A stretch of 32,000 bases of DNA, from contig CP065016.1 of assembly GCA_016700375.1 (NCBI GenBank), forward strand, positions 720,001-752,000, read 5' to 3'. Positions 5,955-29,236 of the stretch are shown in pieces. Numbering within the stretch: the first letter of the stretch is position 1; each line of letters begins with the position of its first letter. The DNA is from Candidatus Saccharimonadota bacterium (GTDB taxonomy: Bacteria > Patescibacteriota > Saccharimonadia > Saccharimonadales > UBA4665). The translations under genes were made by a program, and so were the position numbers. The notes under the pieces were generated by a model that saw only the letters and a program-made list of their open reading frames with translations, was not told the DNA's origin and did no database searches.

Positions 5955-6334
5955 CCATTCTCATTGATTCTCATATCTATATTTGGCTGCTGTTCGAGTC
6001 GTATCGCTTTAGCCCAGCCACTAAGCGTACACTGCAGACAGCAGAAGAGCTATATGTCTCTATCGCAAGTCTCACTGAACTCACATTCAAACACGGCTCT
6101 GGAAAGCTCAAGTACAATCCTGCCAATTTGTGCCAGGGCCTAGCCGAAGCGAATATCCATCTTCTTGCCATAACTAACCGCCACCTAGAGAAGTACGCTG
6201 AAATATCCTTGAGCCATAAAGACCCGTTCGATCGTCTACTCATCGCCCAAGCTCAGTGCGAAAACCTGCCACTTCTTACCGCTGATCAAACCTTACTCGA
6301 CTCATCCTACCCCACTATCGACGCCCGCAAATAG
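5951..6334 (+). CDS. vapC: PIN-domain toxin VapC
   Basis: MTILIDSHIYIWLL..SIASLTEL..HKDPFDRLLIAQAQCENLPLLTADQ: acidic PIN residues in the usual order. 4-nt overlap with the antitoxin. Confidence 0.85.
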   Translation: MTILIDSHIYIWLLFESYRFSPATKRTLQTAEELYVSIASLTELTFKHGSGKLKYNPANLCQGLAEANIHLLAITNRHLEKYAEISLSHKDPFDRLLIAQAQCENLPLLTADQTLLDSSYPTIDARK

Positions 6335-14326: not shown

Positions 14327-14349
14327 TGCTTCCTCGTACCGAGCAGTGA

Positions 14350-19542: not shown

Positions 19543-19935
19543 TTATTCTACTAGTTCAACATTGGGTAATTGACGAGCAAGTTTTTTATCAAATGTAAGC
19601 AACGGTATAGCACCGTTCAGTTCAGCATGCACCGCTAGGCAACAGTCAACAAACGATAACGCAGTATGTTTTTCATACAGCGGCAATGCTCCGGAGAGTA
19701 CTGACCTATTGCAGTTTACATTTGCCTGCGCCATGATGGCGCGGAAATTGTTTGCTACCATGCTACGAGGCAGCCCCATTACCCTTTCCATGACGTATGC
19801 AATCTCTTCAAGTACCATGTCCGCGACATGCAAAATGTCTTTGCCAGACATAACCCTGTCCGTCAAAGCTTGTTGAGTGGGCACATCACCCAAAAGCCAG
19901 CGAAGCAAGAAGTTTGCATCGAGTGATTTTTGCAT
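19543..19935 (-). CDS. vapC: PIN-domain toxin VapC
   Basis: ..LDANFLLRWLLGD..VADMVLEEIAYVM..SFVDCCLAVHAELNGAIPLLTFDKKL. ATG 19935 is preferred; the track ORF uses GTG 19947, which overlaps the antitoxin. Confidence 0.8.
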   Translation of the reverse strand: MQKSLDANFLLRWLLGDVPTQQALTDRVMSGKDILHVADMVLEEIAYVMERVMGLPRSMVANNFRAIMAQANVNCNRSVLSGALPLYEKHTALSFVDCCLAVHAELNGAIPLLTFDKKLARQLPNVELVE

Positions 19936-19936
19936 A

Positions 19937-20212
19937 CTATGCTTCACCTAACGCATATTTTTGGCGATACTCAGCTATTTTAACAGCATCAATCTGCTCT
20001 TGCGTCGGCACCTGTACAATGTGCTGGCGCATGTATTCCCTATTTTCTGTTCGAACAGTCTCAATGCTCACAGGAGCTAAAATAGTCAATTGATTACCAT
20101 GCATACGTATTTCTACCCGCTTCCCGGGCTGTAGTTTCATGGCTGTCCGAAATGCTGCCGGCAAGGTAATCTGCCCCTTGCTTGTCATGGTAGATGTCGC
20201 ATATGTTTTCAT
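19937..20212 (-). CDS. vapB: AbrB/SpoVT-fold antitoxin (VapB/MazE type)
   Basis: ..TSKGQITLPAAFRTAMKLQPGKRVEIRMHGNQLTILAP is the swapped-hairpin AbrB motif. It lies directly upstream of the PIN toxin. Confidence 0.8.
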   Translation of the reverse strand: MKTYATSTMTSKGQITLPAAFRTAMKLQPGKRVEIRMHGNQLTILAPVSIETVRTENREYMRQHIVQVPTQEQIDAVKIAEYRQKYALGEA

Positions 20213-20219
20213 GGTAAGA

Positions 20220-20258
20220 AATATACCATACGTAATACTTTTTGTAAATGTATTACGT
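20220..20258 (-). promoter_or_regulatory. Promoter TTTACA-17 nt-TATATT, 7 nt from ATG 20212, overlapped by a 9-bp inverted repeat (operator and/or polA terminator hairpin)
   Basis: Minus strand: TTTACA 20248-20243, TATATT 20225-20220. Inverted repeat ACGTAATAC 20230-20238 / GTATTACGT 20250-20258. Confidence 0.55.
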
Positions 20259-20287
20259 TGGAATCAATATCGCGACACACCTAGGAG

Positions 20288-23008
20288 CTACAGTTCGCCC
20301 CAGTTGTCGCCTATGGAGGTGTCTACTGCAAGTTTTACAGGGAGATCCGGGTAAATGGCTTCCATGGTGGTTTTGAGTATGTCTGCCACTTTTTCAGCAT
20401 CTTGCTCGGCACATTCGACAAGGATAGAGTCATGTATCTGAAGCAGTTGCTGGGGCTTACTGGCGAACTGTGCAAGGTCAGACCTTCCAGGCTGCACTTT
20501 TTGAGAGGTCTGACCTTGCACAGTTCGCGCCTCAAACGCCCTTTCCACCGCCACCATTGCCAGTTTCATCAGGTCTGCTTCGGTGCCCTGAATAGGCATG
20601 TTCATTGCCGCGCGGGCGGCGGCTTGTCGCACAATGAAATTGCTCGAATGTATGTCTGGCATCGGGCGGCGGCGGCCCAGCAGTGTCTCGACGTAGCCAT
20701 CTTTTTTGGCCTGTTCCTTCAGGCCGTTTAGGTAGCCGAGGAGCGGCGCGCGTACCTTGAAATATTCGTCTATAAACGACTTAGCCTGTGTAAAATTCAT
20801 ACCTGTTGCAGCCGCCAGCCCGTGCGGGCTCATACCGTACAGCACACCAAAATTAATGGTTTTTGCCGCTGAACGCATCTGTTTGGTGACATCTTCGGGG
20901 CTTCGACCATACACTTCGGCCGCTGTGGTCAGGTGAATATCTGCGCCGCGATTAAACATACTCACCATCTCGCTATCGCCACTCATGGCTGCGGCAAGGC
21001 GTAGTTCAAACTGGCTGTAGTCGGCGCTCACGAACTTCCTGCCCTTGCCCGCCACAAACGCCGCCCGGATATGCTTGCCTAGTTCTGTGCGCACCGGTAT
21101 ATTTTGCAGGTTTGGGTCGGTGCTGCTGAGTCGGCCGGTCTGGGCAATGGTGAGGTTAAATGTGGTGTGCACACGGCCATGGCCGTCGACCAGTTTTGGC
21201 AGCGTATCAACATAGGTATTTTTTAGCTTCGTCACCTCACGGTACTGACTAATAAGGTCAATTATGGGGTGAGCTACGCGCAGTTTATCCAGCTCGCTTG
21301 CCGCTGTACTGTAGCCAGTCTTACCCTTTTTCACACCCGCTGTTGGCAACCCAAGTTTGTCAAAAAGTATAGTCGCAAGCTGCGCCGGACTGGCAATGTT
21401 AAACTCGGCATCAGCATGACCATAAATTTGTTGTTCAAGGTCGGAGATGCTGTCCTCGATTTGTTCAGAAAACTGTGCCAGGTACAATGTGTCGAGCTGA
21501 ATCCCCGCGTACTCCATACGTGCGAGTACCGGTATAACGGGCATATCGACAGTAGAATTTAGAATTTGGAATTTGGAATTTGCCTGAAATTCTTCGCGCT
21601 GTTTAGCGACTATGGCTCGTATTACGGCCACAATTTCAGCACCGCGACCAAGCAGTTCCTCGTCGCTCATATTTTCAAAAGATGAGCCGTCGTATCCGAG
21701 TACGTCAGCGGCAAGATCGGTCAATGTTTGCGCACGAATCAGGCTATTGAGCGTAAACGCCGCAACCAGTATATCGTGTGCGACTTCGGGCAGTTTCTCC
21801 ACCCCCATACCGAGCAGTGTCTTTAGGCTAGACTTCACGTCGTAGCCAATGAATCTTGAATCTTGAATTTTGAATTTTGAAAAGACTTTTGCAGCATCAA
21901 CTTTTGCTAGGTCAAACACATAAGTCAGCTTGTCGTCTGCCGATACTATGAGCACTTTCGGGTCACGCCCCGCTACTCCAGCCGAGCGCCCGTACACTAC
22001 CAGCTCCGCCCCATTTGGGATTTTTACAGAAGCCAGTTTCACCTCATCGTCGATGATACGGTTCTCTCCAACGGTAAATCCATGATTCGTAATGCCAGAT
22101 TCATGATGCTGCAAATCCACGTGTAAAATCTCGGGTAGCTGGCGGGCAAGGCTCCTAAATTCAAGCTTTTCGAGTAACTCAACAATCTTTACTGGGTTTG
22201 CACCCATATGTCCGTCCATCCGCTCGAGGTCGAGCGGCACGGGCGCATCCAACCACAGCGCGGCAAGTTTTTTACTCATGTAAGCGCTTTCTTTACCAGC
22301 TTCGAGCTTTTTGCGCACGCTGTCTTTCACCTGCCAGAGGTTTTCATACACGCCGTCCATGGTCTTGTAGTCCTGCAGCAGCTGTATAGCAGTTTTTTCA
22401 CCTATGCCCGGCACACCCGGGATGTTGTCTGAGCTGTCGCCTTTGAGCGCTTTGAGGTCAAGAAATTGTTCGGGCTCTATGCCGTATTTGGCCGTAAAAC
22501 TTTCTGGCGAATACAATTCTATGTCGCTTAAACCCTTTTTCAGCCGGTACATTTTGGTTAGCGGCCCGACGCACTGCAGCGCATCCATATCACTGGTAAT
22601 AAGCAGCGTTTCTATACCCTTTTTGCTCGCTTCGTGTGCGAGTGTGGCCATAATGTCATCTGCCTCGTAATCATCGAGTTCGTACAGCGGCCAGCCAAAC
22701 GCATCGAGAAGTTCGTGCAGCACCGGGATTTGTTCATAAAAGTCTGGTGGTGCTGGCTTGCGCCCTGCTTTGTACTCTGGGTATATGGCAAGCCGCGAGC
22801 GAATGTTCGTTTTTGGCTTGTCCCACGCCACCGCTACATAGTCTGGCTTGAGGCGACGAATGACCTCGAGCGCCATGGTTGCAAACCCAAACACGCCGCC
22901 CGTAGGCGTGCCGTCTTTGGTACTGAGGTTTGACATAGCGTAGTACCCACGGTAAAAGACCGACTTTCCGTCAATCACCGCCAACCGTTTCCTCTGCTCC
23001 TCAGCCAT
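20288..23008 (-). CDS. polA: DNA polymerase I (5' nuclease + exo-like + family A polymerase domains)
   Basis: 906 aa. N-terminal 5' nuclease (LAVIDGKS..YKAGR..GIGEKTA). Motif A DYSQFELRL, motif B RSAAKTINFGVLYG, motif C QIHDS. The ExoI DxE motif is absent (VVYGRSAG), so the proofreading domain is probably inactive. TATAAT (23021-23016) lies 7 nt upstream of the ATG. Confidence 0.98.
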   Translation of the reverse strand: MAEEQRKRLAVIDGKSVFYRGYYAMSNLSTKDGTPTGGVFGFATMALEVIRRLKPDYVAVAWDKPKTNIRSRLAIYPEYKAGRKPAPPDFYEQIPVLHELLDAFGWPLYELDDYEADDIMATLAHEASKKGIETLLITSDMDALQCVGPLTKMYRLKKGLSDIELYSPESFTAKYGIEPEQFLDLKALKGDSSDNIPGVPGIGEKTAIQLLQDYKTMDGVYENLWQVKDSVRKKLEAGKESAYMSKKLAALWLDAPVPLDLERMDGHMGANPVKIVELLEKLEFRSLARQLPEILHVDLQHHESGITNHGFTVGENRIIDDEVKLASVKIPNGAELVVYGRSAGVAGRDPKVLIVSADDKLTYVFDLAKVDAAKVFSKFKIQDSRFIGYDVKSSLKTLLGMGVEKLPEVAHDILVAAFTLNSLIRAQTLTDLAADVLGYDGSSFENMSDEELLGRGAEIVAVIRAIVAKQREEFQANSKFQILNSTVDMPVIPVLARMEYAGIQLDTLYLAQFSEQIEDSISDLEQQIYGHADAEFNIASPAQLATILFDKLGLPTAGVKKGKTGYSTAASELDKLRVAHPIIDLISQYREVTKLKNTYVDTLPKLVDGHGRVHTTFNLTIAQTGRLSSTDPNLQNIPVRTELGKHIRAAFVAGKGRKFVSADYSQFELRLAAAMSGDSEMVSMFNRGADIHLTTAAEVYGRSPEDVTKQMRSAAKTINFGVLYGMSPHGLAAATGMNFTQAKSFIDEYFKVRAPLLGYLNGLKEQAKKDGYVETLLGRRRPMPDIHSSNFIVRQAAARAAMNMPIQGTEADLMKLAMVAVERAFEARTVQGQTSQKVQPGRSDLAQFASKPQQLLQIHDSILVECAEQDAEKVADILKTTMEAIYPDLPVKLAVDTSIGDNWGEL
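20463..20528. repeat. 66-nt palindromic element (perfect 22-bp arms, 22-nt loop) in frame within polA
   Basis: GCGAACTGTGCAAGGTCAGACC (20463-20484) and its exact reverse complement GGTCTGACCTTGCACAGTTCGC (20507-20528). The element encodes ..RTVQGQTSQKVQPGRSDLAQFA... It also produces the mirrored peptides seen in track ORFs 20335..20535(-) and 20402..20731(+). Confidence 0.95.
21554..21581 (+). repeat. Heptanucleotide tandem array B: AGAATTT AGAATTT GGAATTT GGAATTT (inside polA, antisense to it)
   Basis: Four perfect-phase 7-mers, followed by GCCTG AAATTC, which can pair with the last unit. Encodes ANSKFQILNS in polA. Confidence 0.9.
21851..21885 (+). repeat. Heptanucleotide tandem array C: GAATCTT GAATCTT GAATTTT GAATTTT (GAAAAGA) (inside polA, antisense to it)
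   Basis: Same 2+2 organisation as array B, starting 297 nt (99 codons) away. Encodes SKFKIQDSRF in polA. Confidence 0.9.
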
Positions 23009-28038: not shown

Positions 28039-29236
28039 GTCTATCTGCTAGTTTAGTAGGGCAAAAGGCTGCAAATAAAACCATAAAGTATAACAAGGTC
28101 AGCTCAAGGCTCGGCGTATTGCATAGAGCATTTGCTATCAAAATGCCAAACAATGCCAACATGAAATAGCCACGTCTACGCACGTATCTATGCACTGCAA
28201 TAATCGTAAGTACCATCAAACTAACAGAGGTTACAAGACCAAAGTAATACGCAACGTCAAAGTAAAGACTGTGGGTGGACATAAAGAGCTCACCTGTGCG
28301 TAGGCTTTTCTTTATATCTTCTGGGACCTCATTTTGATTATTGATGGCAGGAGGAAGACTGTTCGCCCCGTTCCCGATAACGCTGTTGTGTTTTACGATA
28401 TCGAGTCCCGATGTTTTGTATAAACTCAGTCGATACGAAACACCACGGTTTACGCTTGAAGCCCCAAAACGATCAAAATAATTGGTTTCTAGTCTAGGCA
28501 AAACAGAAACAGCCAGCAGTGTGAACAGTGCAATTCCGACGACAATCTTACTTCGTTTCCACGCCACCATAACTGCTCCTGCCGAGAGCACGGCCAAGAC
28601 AAAATAGCTAATCCTTGACTGTGTCAAAACCACCGTAGCAGCAGCCACGAACGCAAGCGCACAGCTCATCCCTTTCCAGAAAAGTTGTCTGTGCACCGAA
28701 ATGGACTTCAGGCCAATAGCATACGCAATACTCGCAAACATACCCATTGATGTTGCCTGTAGCAACAATCCACTGACACGAAAGCCGTATCGTATATAGA
28801 ACTGATTGATATACAGTGAGCCAAGCATACAAACAATCATGACGAACAAAGTTATCTTCGATCGCACAGCTTTCTGAGCAATATCCATAAGACCTATCGC
28901 CAAAGTTAAAAATGAAACCCAGGTCACTAATCCTAGATACTCCGGGGTGAGCCCAAACAGACGAACTTCTACGATATCTGGCGAACGCACGGTCGAAAAC
29001 ACCATCATAACGGTCATAAACGTAGTCACGTACCGGACAAGCTTCGGTAGGCCATACCAGTTCTGAACAAGCTGGTGTCGCATACTGGTGCTCACCACAA
29101 ACAATGCTGCAAGCAACAAGACAGAAAACCGTATTGCCCGGCTCACAAGCGGCTGATCTATGACATAGAAAAGTGGCAGAGCAAGAAGCGTACAAAATAA
29201 AAGCAGCCTCAAGTCGACTGCTTTTATTTTTTTCAT
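28019..29236 (-). CDS. O-antigen ligase / Wzy-like polytopic membrane protein
   Basis: ~10 TM helices. ..LTQSRISYFVLAVLSAG.. and ..RLSLYK..IVKHNSVIGNGANSL....STHSLYFDVAYYFGLV follow the Wzy_C pattern (SRGa.., GxGxGxF, HN.yl....G..G). 20-nt overlap with the PBP gene. Confidence 0.55.
   Translation of the reverse strand: MKKIKAVDLRLLLFCTLLALPLFYVIDQPLVSRAIRFSVLLLAALFVVSTSMRHQLVQNWYGLPKLVRYVTTFMTVMMVFSTVRSPDIVEVRLFGLTPEYLGLVTWVSFLTLAIGLMDIAQKAVRSKITLFVMIVCMLGSLYINQFYIRYGFRVSGLLLQATSMGMFASIAYAIGLKSISVHRQLFWKGMSCALAFVAAATVVLTQSRISYFVLAVLSAGAVMVAWKRSKIVVGIALFTLLAVSVLPRLETNYFDRFGASSVNRGVSYRLSLYKTSGLDIVKHNSVIGNGANSLPPAINNQNEVPEDIKKSLRTGELFMSTHSLYFDVAYYFGLVTSVSLMVLTIIAVHRYVRRRGYFMLALFGILIANALCNTPSLELTLLYFMVLFAAFCPTKLADRHASKVT

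Follow-up and report, generated by a model that had tools for sequence, protein, structure and literature searches.

A perfect 66-nt palindrome read in frame in polA of a Saccharibacteria genome, with a probable origin by local inverted duplication

The polA gene in the 32,000-nt stretch of DNA analysed here (the window) contains a perfect palindrome of 66 nt, which is read in frame and gives DNA polymerase I 22 extra residues just before motif C. We consider it probable that the palindrome arose as a local inverted duplication, by template switching or fold-back of a strand within a permissive loop, and that it is a young allele spread by recombination.

A perfect palindrome in frame within polA

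The product of polA, encoded on the minus strand, is 100% identical to P0001, ‘DNA polymerase I [Candidatus Saccharibacteria bacterium]’. It has the Pfam domains PF02739, PF01367 and PF00476 and aligns to the Taq and Klenow structures, and Q857, H859 and D860 are invariant in the PolA alignment. By its domains and motif C it is a family A DNA polymerase (Pol I). A repeat finder placed the two arms of an inverted repeat at 20463–20485 and 20506–20528, each of 23 nt and 100% complementary, with a gap of 20 nt, and the reading frame stays intact through the 66 nt. The first-pass annotation had described a perfect palindrome in frame within polA, laid out as 22 + 22 + 22 nt. Sequence, repeat finder and translation all confirm the palindrome and its total length, but each arm is one base longer on its inner side (23 + 20 + 23). 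The features, all on the minus strand, are as follows.

20288–23008, minus strand: polA coding sequence, DNA polymerase I, 906 aa, with 5′-nuclease domains and a family A polymerase domain (ORF list and translation)
20546–20587, minus strand: helix Q codons, GTEADLMKLAMVAV (G808–V821), conserved, before the loop; aligns to Taq ...QGTAADLMKLAMVKL
20441–20543, minus strand: hypervariable loop-coding block from helix Q to the motif C strand, unaligned against L084 (blastn)
20506–20528, minus strand: 5′ arm of the palindrome (coding sense), GCGAACTGTGCAAGGTCAGACCT, encoding (A)RTVQGQT(S); candidate ancestral arm
20486–20505, minus strand: 20-nt spacer, the hairpin loop, encoding (S)QKVQPG
20463–20485, minus strand: 3′ arm of the palindrome (coding sense), AGGTCTGACCTTGCACAGTTCGC, encoding RSDLAQFA; candidate new reverse-complement copy
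20429–20440, minus strand: motif C codons QIHD (Q857–D860) with the catalytic aspartate, directly after the loop (alignment to Taq)

In the protein the palindrome is read as R828–A849, RTVQGQTSQKVQPGRSDLAQFA, preceded by ...KLAMVAVERAFEA and followed by SKPQQLLQIHD. Four of the six reading frames of the element are open, and a fifth is readable in part before its stop codon. With the spacer inverted the frame would stay open as well, giving ...TFQAALFER....

A chance origin of the palindrome is excluded. With up to three mismatches allowed, the arm had no match elsewhere in the window and none in 100 shuffles, which upholds two earlier statements, that the match is beyond chance and that the window holds no second copy. 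The arm pair is also the longest perfect inverted repeat across 985 kb of scanned Saccharibacteria DNA. Folding, proposed earlier as a check, gave a very stable hairpin, at −59 kcal/mol for RNA (z = −6.5) and −31.7 kcal/mol for DNA (z = −5.7).

Position of the insert in the polymerase

Alignment to the Taq structures puts 31 PolA residues between the conserved blocks, from helix Q to motif C, where Taq Pol I has 9. The difference is exactly the 22 residues counted in the first-pass annotation. In the AlphaFold model (mean pLDDT 87.5) a helix predicted for residues 791–833 extends into the insert, residues 840–848 have a pLDDT below 50, and a strand follows at 853–858. The insert is accordingly modelled as a helix extension and a disordered surface loop just before motif C, as the earlier placement in a surface loop had anticipated. 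The prediction also goes part of the way towards showing that the loop between helix Q and the motif C strand is permissive to insertion.

Carriers of the element

Two further strains carry the element. L097 (Logan assembly of ERR12982542) matches the window at every one of the 66 nt; L003 (JGI metagenome 3300046786) has one substitution, in the spacer (CCT to TCT), and this is the sole change in the element among the three strains. The polA DNA around it differs from the window by 5–6% in both. A search for C-terminal fragments gave one more carrier, P0123, and many other expanded loops; it found no intermediate allele of the palindrome.

None of the 46 arm sites varies among the three strains, whereas 8.7% of sites do in what remains of the 3′ end of polA (P ≈ 0.015); of 627 control windows, only 7 were equally conserved. 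The ∼15 third-codon positions within the arms are likewise all unchanged. This unusual conservation counts against the explanation that we prefer; it is explicable by youth and recombination or by selection for pairing.

Variability of the loop among relatives

One loop of Saccharibacteria PolA, the one that holds the insert, is a hotspot of indels and recombination. Its length in PolA homologues ranges from 13 to 52 residues, and loop types are non-monophyletic, being scattered on the PolA tree with similar types in separate clades. The closest relatives (94–97% protein identity) have different, non-palindromic loops of 19 and 26 residues. Against L084, a 91.5%-identical strain, the sole part of polA left unaligned by blastn is 20441–20543, a block of 103 nt in the window versus 73 nt in L084; the loop diverges completely while the remaining gene is more than 91% identical. 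Recombination is apparent as a mosaic in polA, the window and L001 showing 0–1 differences per 150 nt in columns 901–1500 and ∼10 per 150 nt elsewhere.

Analogous events are found in polA of relatives. Where the same PolA loop begins, L063, L061 and L047 each have a perfect hairpin of 12 bp closed by a 4-nt loop, with arms that differ in all three; the downstream arm in L063 is a cluster of substitutions in place of the usual residues. The polA genes of L076 and L077 contain a perfect repeat of 16–17 bp in which the second arm substitutes for an ancestral segment of equal length. The same loop of L100 contains a 28-nt repeat that is unrelated to the palindrome and in decay, its arms being 79% complementary with small indels, and it has a nested 9-bp hairpin. 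A 7-nt tandem periodicity is seen in 10 of 16 expanded loops. That hairpin inserts recur in the same loop of several lineages is a second observation against our preferred explanation, as it could mean selection for structure.

Perfect inverted repeats of at least 11 bp are about equally dense in polA and in other ORFs. We rejected an enrichment across polA because 12 of 43 such repeats fall in this gene, which makes up 25% of the scanned sequence; it is the loop site alone that stands out. Other ideas were also dropped. The variation is by indels, without the adenine-specific substitutions or the template repeat that a target of a diversity-generating retroelement would have; the motifs of an intein or intron remnant are absent, and translation runs in frame through the element; and no conserved slippery sequence lies upstream that would mark a programmed frameshift site.

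Probable origin by local inverted duplication

One arm of the palindrome repeats the other, on the same molecule, exactly as its reverse complement (23 of 23 positions, 20 nt apart); the palindrome is local and single-copy within the data searched, and comparable events have occurred in polA of relatives. These observations are consistent with a model where a strand being synthesized, in replication or in the repair of a break, changed template or folded back on itself and copied ∼23 nt of existing loop-coding sequence as its reverse complement. One such event would produce the perfect stem. The copy would by chance have been in frame, so that the result is translated, and the surface position between helix Q and the motif C strand would have allowed the insert to be tolerated. 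The young allele would then have been exchanged among close strains by homologous recombination, and we suggest that the arms are still perfect because of this youth and mode of transmission. The model does not require a function for the hairpin; any slowing of ribosomes or RNase III sensitivity of the polA mRNA would be a side effect, and the palindrome itself may well be neutral. Template switching is known to give perfect stems from a single event and to homogenize repeat arms, coding sequence included (PMC8794818; PMC8604942; PMC5941160).

The direction of copying was sought by aligning the loop, globally and codon by codon, with L001, L084, L098, L099 and L088 and by removing parts of the element. 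Removal of the 3′ arm, alone or together with the spacer, aligned best for four of five relatives, with small score differences on diverged loops, and removal of all 66 nt aligned worse than removal of one arm for every relative tested. The alignments hint that the 5′ arm may be ancestral and the 3′ arm the new copy. The ancestral arm is not firmly identified because the closest relatives have loops that diverge too far, with roughly 45–65% of bases matching in a manual comparison. An allele lacking the 3′ arm alone would read ‘VAVERAFEARTVQGQTSQKVQPG-SKPQQ’.

Alternative explanations

The strongest rival, which we nevertheless regard as unlikely, is that the 23-bp stem is functional in the polA mRNA or in single-stranded DNA and is kept perfect by selection. 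Its role could be in RNase III or other processing, in pausing translation ahead of motif C, in binding a protein or in forming a cruciform. The extreme stability of the hairpin in RNA and DNA would be expected of such an element, as would the invariance of the arm sites and of their third-codon positions, and the same loop also forms hairpins, of different sequence, in other lineages. A perfect 23-bp duplex is moreover long enough to be an RNase III substrate. However, only one tight cluster of strains has the hairpin, the loops of relatives at 94–96% protein identity being entirely different and non-palindromic, and with arms identical in every carrier covariation is not scorable. The independent L100 palindrome is decaying, and the even density of inverted repeats in other ORFs likewise gives no special status to polA. 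Rfam searches at a relaxed threshold returned only generic, miRNA-precursor-like matches of 16–30 bits, below the gathering scores of 60–104. A scan of 19900–21000 gave no terminator-like site, and the sequence after the stem, CAGUAAGCCCC, has no U-tract. As regards a conserved cis-regulatory RNA, none of the diverged orthologues compared has the hairpin and no curated family matches it above threshold.

Less probable again is diversifying selection on a PolA surface loop, imposed by an antagonist such as a phage or host factor or a toxin, with the hairpin being incidental. Selection would favour novel alleles of the loop, the palindrome included, however they had arisen, and recombination would exchange them. 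This would account for the discrete loop types that are scattered on the PolA tree and alike in separate clades, for the clear recombination in polA, and for a loop that is wholly diverged in a gene otherwise more than 91% identical. On the other hand, dN/dS is not computable on unalignable loops, the loop has no known interaction partner, and a permissive, indel-rich loop gives the same pattern without selection.

We are slightly more doubtful of a broader proposal, that Saccharibacteria repeatedly evolve and retain polA hairpins and 7-nt tracts upstream of motif C for the use of the nucleic-acid structure. Such structures could tune PolA output through RNase III cleavage or ribosome stalling, could act as a slippage-prone on/off switch of the polymerase that spares the 5′-nuclease, or could be protein-binding DNA sites. 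If this were true, the 23-bp palindrome would be the most extreme current form of a programmed element and no mutational accident.

The first-pass annotation had likened the palindrome to the Rickettsia palindromic elements (RPEs), mobile elements that enter genes in frame. A miniature mobile palindromic element of this type (RPE-, MITE- or REP-like) now seems very unlikely. It was an attractive idea in view of the perfect palindrome, the four open frames out of six and an excess over Taq Pol I of exactly 22 residues, and in the source genome the copy searches covered the window alone. Yet a second copy was found neither there nor in any of the other collections searched. In the Saccharibacteria loci (∼1 Mb), with up to five mismatches in an arm and four in the spacer, only the orthologous polA sites and chance single arms matched. 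An 18-mer of the arm gave four single-arm matches in 185,579 species genomes, all in unrelated taxa (Acidimicrobiia, Bathyarchaeia, Pseudomonas); the source genome lies outside this collection, as judged from its own polA site, which gave no match. The same 18-mer gave two single-arm matches and no full element in viral contigs, and a 91-nt query returned no significant match among phage or plasmid sequences, with no E-value better than 0.7. The peptides that the element can encode in its readable frames, on both strands, were joined into one query (the four fully open frames and the part of the fifth before its stop codon), which matched only the PolA fragment P0121 among 5.8 billion proteins, in a search of imperfect sensitivity, since P0001 and P0002 contain the peptide and were not listed.

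The site itself also argues against transposition. The palindrome is flanked by GAGGC and CAGTA, with no target-site duplication, and the close relatives offer no clean empty site, as their loops have 19 or 26 residues and the differing block exceeds the palindrome. At 66 nt the element is less than half of the ∼150 bp of an RPE (PMC10969869), and its sequence has nothing in common with the hairpin inserts that other lineages have at this site. The annotation had also envisaged relatives with a homologous 22-residue segment encoded by non-palindromic DNA; this case did not occur.

An assembly or amplification artefact is hardly credible: perfect palindromes can arise from fold-back chimeras and the gene call of fragment P0123 begins within the spacer, but the 66 nt recur with their frame intact in three independent assemblies from different sources, two of them additional to the window and with backgrounds that differ by 5–6%, which disposes of the chimera that the annotation had allowed for.

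Implications

If local inverted duplication is the true explanation, a single replication error was enough to give an essential enzyme 22 new residues and its gene a long perfect hairpin, and polA provides a clean natural case in which the mutational signature is still intact. The palindrome could be used in teaching, or as a benchmark, for the detection of template switches in bacteria. The PolA loop hotspot also bears on alignment, on phylogeny and on judgements of MAG quality, the last because palindromes can break contigs. Our data do not extend selfish elements of the RPE type to the Candidate Phyla Radiation, whose members, Saccharibacteria included, are ultra-small and have reduced genomes; such an extension would have been the surprise.

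Comparison with known systems

RPEs are ∼150 bp long and form families with dozens of copies in unrelated genes and a conserved peptide (PMC10969869). The polA element resembles RPEs and intragenic MITEs in being palindromic DNA in frame, translated, at a position that should spare the fold and in a host with a reduced genome. It differs from RPEs in its 66-nt length and in having no family and no second copy in the collections searched, and from both RPEs and MITEs in lacking a target-site duplication and an empty site in relatives.

Inverted duplications associated with quasi-palindromes in bacteria are reportedly explained by the Ripley/Lovett model, and Löytynoja and Goldman are said to have described template-switch mutations, which are also the subject of Mönttinen and Löytynoja 2022 (PMC8794818) and, in coding genes of yeast, of PMC8604942. 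Like these, the polA element is a perfect nearby reverse-complement copy, apparently made in one step, local and single-copy. The clustered multi-base changes that perfect arms in relatives, and the new protein sequence that results, are further features which Saccharibacteria polA shares with template-switch cases. It departs from them in that the event is not reconstructed and the donor arm is weakly identified, and also in the length of its stem (23 bp) and in its place within the coding region of an essential polymerase, where it is translated into 22 extra residues.

As in other lineage-specific insertions into surface loops of family A polymerases, the extra residues lie between conserved motifs and leave the catalytic residues and the fold intact. 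What sets the polA loop apart from these is its turnover among strains that are more than 94% identical, together with a mutational signature, the perfect palindrome, that is still present in the insert.

The palindrome and its place in PolA

The polA gene of the window carries a perfect inverted repeat between the codons for helix Q and those for motif C (LLQIHD). It had first been described as two 22-nt arms around a 22-nt spacer; the total of 66 nt stands, but each arm is one base longer on its inner side.

polA and its palindrome in the window
20288-23008, minus strand: polA ORF, 906 aa; 100% identical to a Candidatus Saccharibacteria bacterium protein named DNA polymerase I (contig of 1.26 Mb)
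20463-20485 and 20506-20528: inverted-repeat arms, 23 nt each, 100% complementary, 20 nt between them (sequence and repeat finder)

This is the sole perfect inverted repeat of at least 16 nt in the window and the longest among the 985 kb of Saccharibacteria sequence scanned. The region folds with −59 kcal/mol as RNA (z = −6.5) and −31.7 kcal/mol as DNA (z = −5.7), and the element is open in four of its six reading frames.

The 66 nt are translated as R828–A849 (RTVQGQTSQKVQPGRSDLAQFA), preceded by helix Q (GTEADLMKLAMVAV) and followed by motif C. In a structure alignment with Taq Pol I the flanking conserved blocks match and 31 query residues face nine in Taq, which confirms the earlier count of exactly 22 additional residues. 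In an AlphaFold model built with 73 homologues, of good overall confidence (mean pLDDT 87.5), helix 791–833 reaches into the beginning of the insert and residues 840–848 have pLDDT < 50; the strand bearing motif C (853–858) comes next. Given this helix and the low-confidence stretch, the extra residues look like a helix extension and a disordered surface loop. Q857, H859 and D860, the catalytic residues, are intact and invariant.

Loop variation among relatives

The loop is hypervariable in Saccharibacteria PolA; its length is taken here from the residue that follows the conserved ...KLAM through the one preceding LLQIHD. Most lineages have 13–16 residues; other lengths are 19, 24, 26–27, 33, 36 (the palindrome allele) and 52, with 39–44 in additional fragments. 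Three unrelated alleles occur side by side in the tight cluster to which the window belongs (94–97% protein identity), and they are interleaved on the PolA tree.

Loop alleles in the cluster
Allele 1: palindrome allele, 36 residues
Allele 2: VAVQRELEKQFAQTAQPQQ, 19 residues
Allele 3: VAVERKIEEFVQRQETRDMSHDGTQQ, 26 residues

The polA genes of the window and of the related locus L001 show 0–1 differences per 150 nt in columns 901–1500 (about window 21510–22110), compared with ∼10 per 150 nt elsewhere. Judged from the sequences, polA is clearly a recombination mosaic. Against the related locus L084 (91.5% identical), the only part of polA that cannot be aligned is 20441–20543, 103 nt opposed to 73 nt in L084; the divergent block thus exceeds the palindrome and this alignment contains no clean empty site. 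In-silico removal of all 66 nt gave the worst loop alignment to each of the five relatives tested, whereas removal of the coding-sense 3′ arm alone, with or without the spacer, gave the top score for four of them. This hints that loop sequence already in place gave rise to the 5′ arm, of which the 3′ arm would be a copy.

Repeats in polA of other lineages

Repeats in polA of related loci (L numbers denote DNA loci of related strains or lineages)
L063 5489-5516: 12-bp perfect hairpin, 4-nt loop, start of PolA loop
L061 6995-7022: 12-bp perfect hairpin, 4-nt loop, start of PolA loop
L047 2880-2907: 12-bp perfect hairpin, 4-nt loop, start of PolA loop
L083 about 6146-6167: 9-bp perfect hairpin, 4-nt loop, start of PolA loop
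L077 4351-4414 and L076 7143-7204: 16-17-bp perfect inverted repeat, 30-nt spacer, exonuclease-like domain
L077 5664-5731: 15-bp perfect inverted repeat (TTGCCGGCCGGCGCC), 38-nt spacer, across motif C in a minimal-loop lineage
L100 123-217: 28-nt inverted repeat of 79% complementarity within the PolA loop, an independent palindrome
L065 8422-8571, L061 6964-7083, L047 2849-2971, L084 12422-12550, L063 5458-5583, L080 8449-8574, L088 9328-9450: expanded loops with 7-nt repeats

Where helix Q ends, the four short hairpins occupy one and the same register, but each has its own arm sequences. Conserved residues that close the helix (MVKI, MVKL or MIKV) are encoded by the upstream arm; the downstream arm, an exact reverse complement of it, alters the protein to match (I/N, L/Q and V/H pairs). 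Compared with its sister lineage L067, the L063 downstream arm has seven clustered substitutions in 12 nt, every one of which creates pairing; most other loci have 2–6 of 14 pairs in the same register. These hairpins fit either homogenization of the arms by template switching or selection for the stem. In the exonuclease-like domain of L076 and L077, the conserved VGYDV is encoded by the first arm, and the second (DIVAHQ) has taken the place of an equally long ancestral segment; this reads as a textbook template-switch footprint common to two sister lineages. L100 belongs to a different lineage, in which the loop has 44 residues; its palindrome (z = −5.9) encloses a second, perfect hairpin of 9 bp, has no sequence in common with the window element and is decaying.

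Tandem periodicity of 7 nt was found in 10 of 16 distinct expanded loops (lag-7 identity 0.38–0.51; controls 0.25 ± 0.05), the units varying by lineage (GAAACAA x4 then CAGTTCC x3; GGTGACA/GGTTACA x4; AATGGAG x4; AGAGACA x3; AGCTNNN x5). Over its full length polA is not enriched in perfect inverted repeats of at least 11 bp (12 of 43 repeats, polA being 25% of the scanned sequence), but the repeats do cluster at the helix Q–motif C loop. We describe the loop as permissive: slippage and template-switch errors are often fixed there and remain recognizable because turnover is fast.

Neighbourhood of polA

Other features of the window
14331-14344 (about): compared with syntenic L084, ∼1 kb absent, holding an rve-family integrase gene in L084 (19638-20597)
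23022-23447, upstream of polA: AAA_14 ATPase gene of L084 (8520-9956) absent
20230-20258: 13-nt inverted repeat, 92% complementary, 3-nt loop, ∼30 nt past the polA stop codon; overlaps a promoter-like site, 20248-20220, minus strand
29194-29230: perfect inverted repeat (AAAATAAAAGCAG) of 13 bp around an 11-nt loop, right where a Wzy_C-family gene begins; kept in L084 and L085

The integrase and ATPase differences beside polA are a matter of strain-level gene presence or absence. Downstream of the 20230–20258 repeat lie a PIN-domain (VapC-like) gene and a YafQ-family toxin gene, assigned by synteny with L084 and the related locus L085. The 29194–29230 repeat may be an intergenic terminator or regulatory hairpin.

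Origin of the palindrome

Template switching during replication yields a perfect stem in one event and also homogenizes the arms of existing repeats, coding sequence included (PMC8794818, PMC8604942 and PMC5941160). A local template switch or fold-back is the best-supported origin of the polA palindrome. Such an event would have added a reverse-complement copy of some 23 nt of the loop-coding DNA, the reading frame being retained by chance, and the insert would be tolerated because the loop lies on the protein surface. The allele would be young and spread through recombination, leaving its arms without variation.

Two independent assemblies besides the window carry the element: L003 (JGI metagenome 3300046786), with one substitution, in the spacer, and L097 (Logan assembly of ERR12982542), identical at 66/66 nt. 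At about 379–385 of L097, polA is broken into two gene calls, with one additional A in an A-run (CTACCTAAAACGG versus CTACCTAAACGG); an error of assembly or sequencing is the probable cause, rather than a pseudogene. A further carrier is the 69-aa Logan fragment P0123, whose gene call begins at a GTG within the palindrome spacer (MQPGRSDLAQFASKPQQ...), suggesting that its contig ends in or near the hairpin.

Among the three strains 0 of 46 arm sites vary, whereas 8.7% of sites do so in 757 nt of neighbouring sequence (P ≈ 0.015); such conservation is reached in just 7 of 627 control windows. The invariance would fit selection for pairing, and is accounted for equally by a young allele spread by recombination. 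Nothing in the sequence points to a defined RNA function: conservation is confined to strains with identical arms, no curated RNA family matched and no terminator was found. That selection or a programme maintains hairpins and repeats at this site of polA is a reading we consider improbable.

The first-pass annotation had proposed an insertion resembling the Rickettsia palindromic elements (RPEs), a proposal that is not borne out, although its observation that the window holds no second copy is upheld (no further arm match at up to three mismatches; 0 in 100 shuffles). With up to five mismatches allowed, related loci from Saccharibacteria (∼1 Mb) had no other copy either. An 18-mer of the arm gave four single-arm matches (Acidimicrobiia, Bathyarchaeia and Pseudomonas) and none in Saccharibacteria among 185,579 species with one genome each, a collection that lacks the source genome (its own polA site had no match), so that the other 1.2 Mb of that genome lie outside this search. 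Viral contigs gave two matches, both single-arm, and phage and plasmid records no significant match to the element. Peptides of all readable frames, compared with 5.8 billion proteins, recovered only a PolA fragment, in a search of incomplete sensitivity given that window PolA (P0001) and the homologue P0002 were unlisted. Target-site duplication is absent because the flanks, GAGGC and CAGTA, differ. These sequence searches yielded no evidence for a mobile element. A fold-back assembly artefact is excluded because the element recurs in L003 and L097, whose polA DNA is 5–6% different from that of the window.

Comparison with known elements

RPEs measure about 150 bp, form families and number in the dozens, spread over unrelated genes (PMC10969869). 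The polA palindrome shares with them only that it is palindromic, in frame and translated; in size, family membership and multiple copies in unrelated genes, every defining feature that can be tested, it differs. It has the testable features of template-switch or quasi-palindrome mutations, apart from the donor arm, which is only weakly identified, and we regard it as a new example of this known kind of event. Its noteworthy points are the size of the 23-bp stem, its position in an essential polymerase just ahead of a catalytic motif, and the repeated restructuring of this loop across Saccharibacteria.
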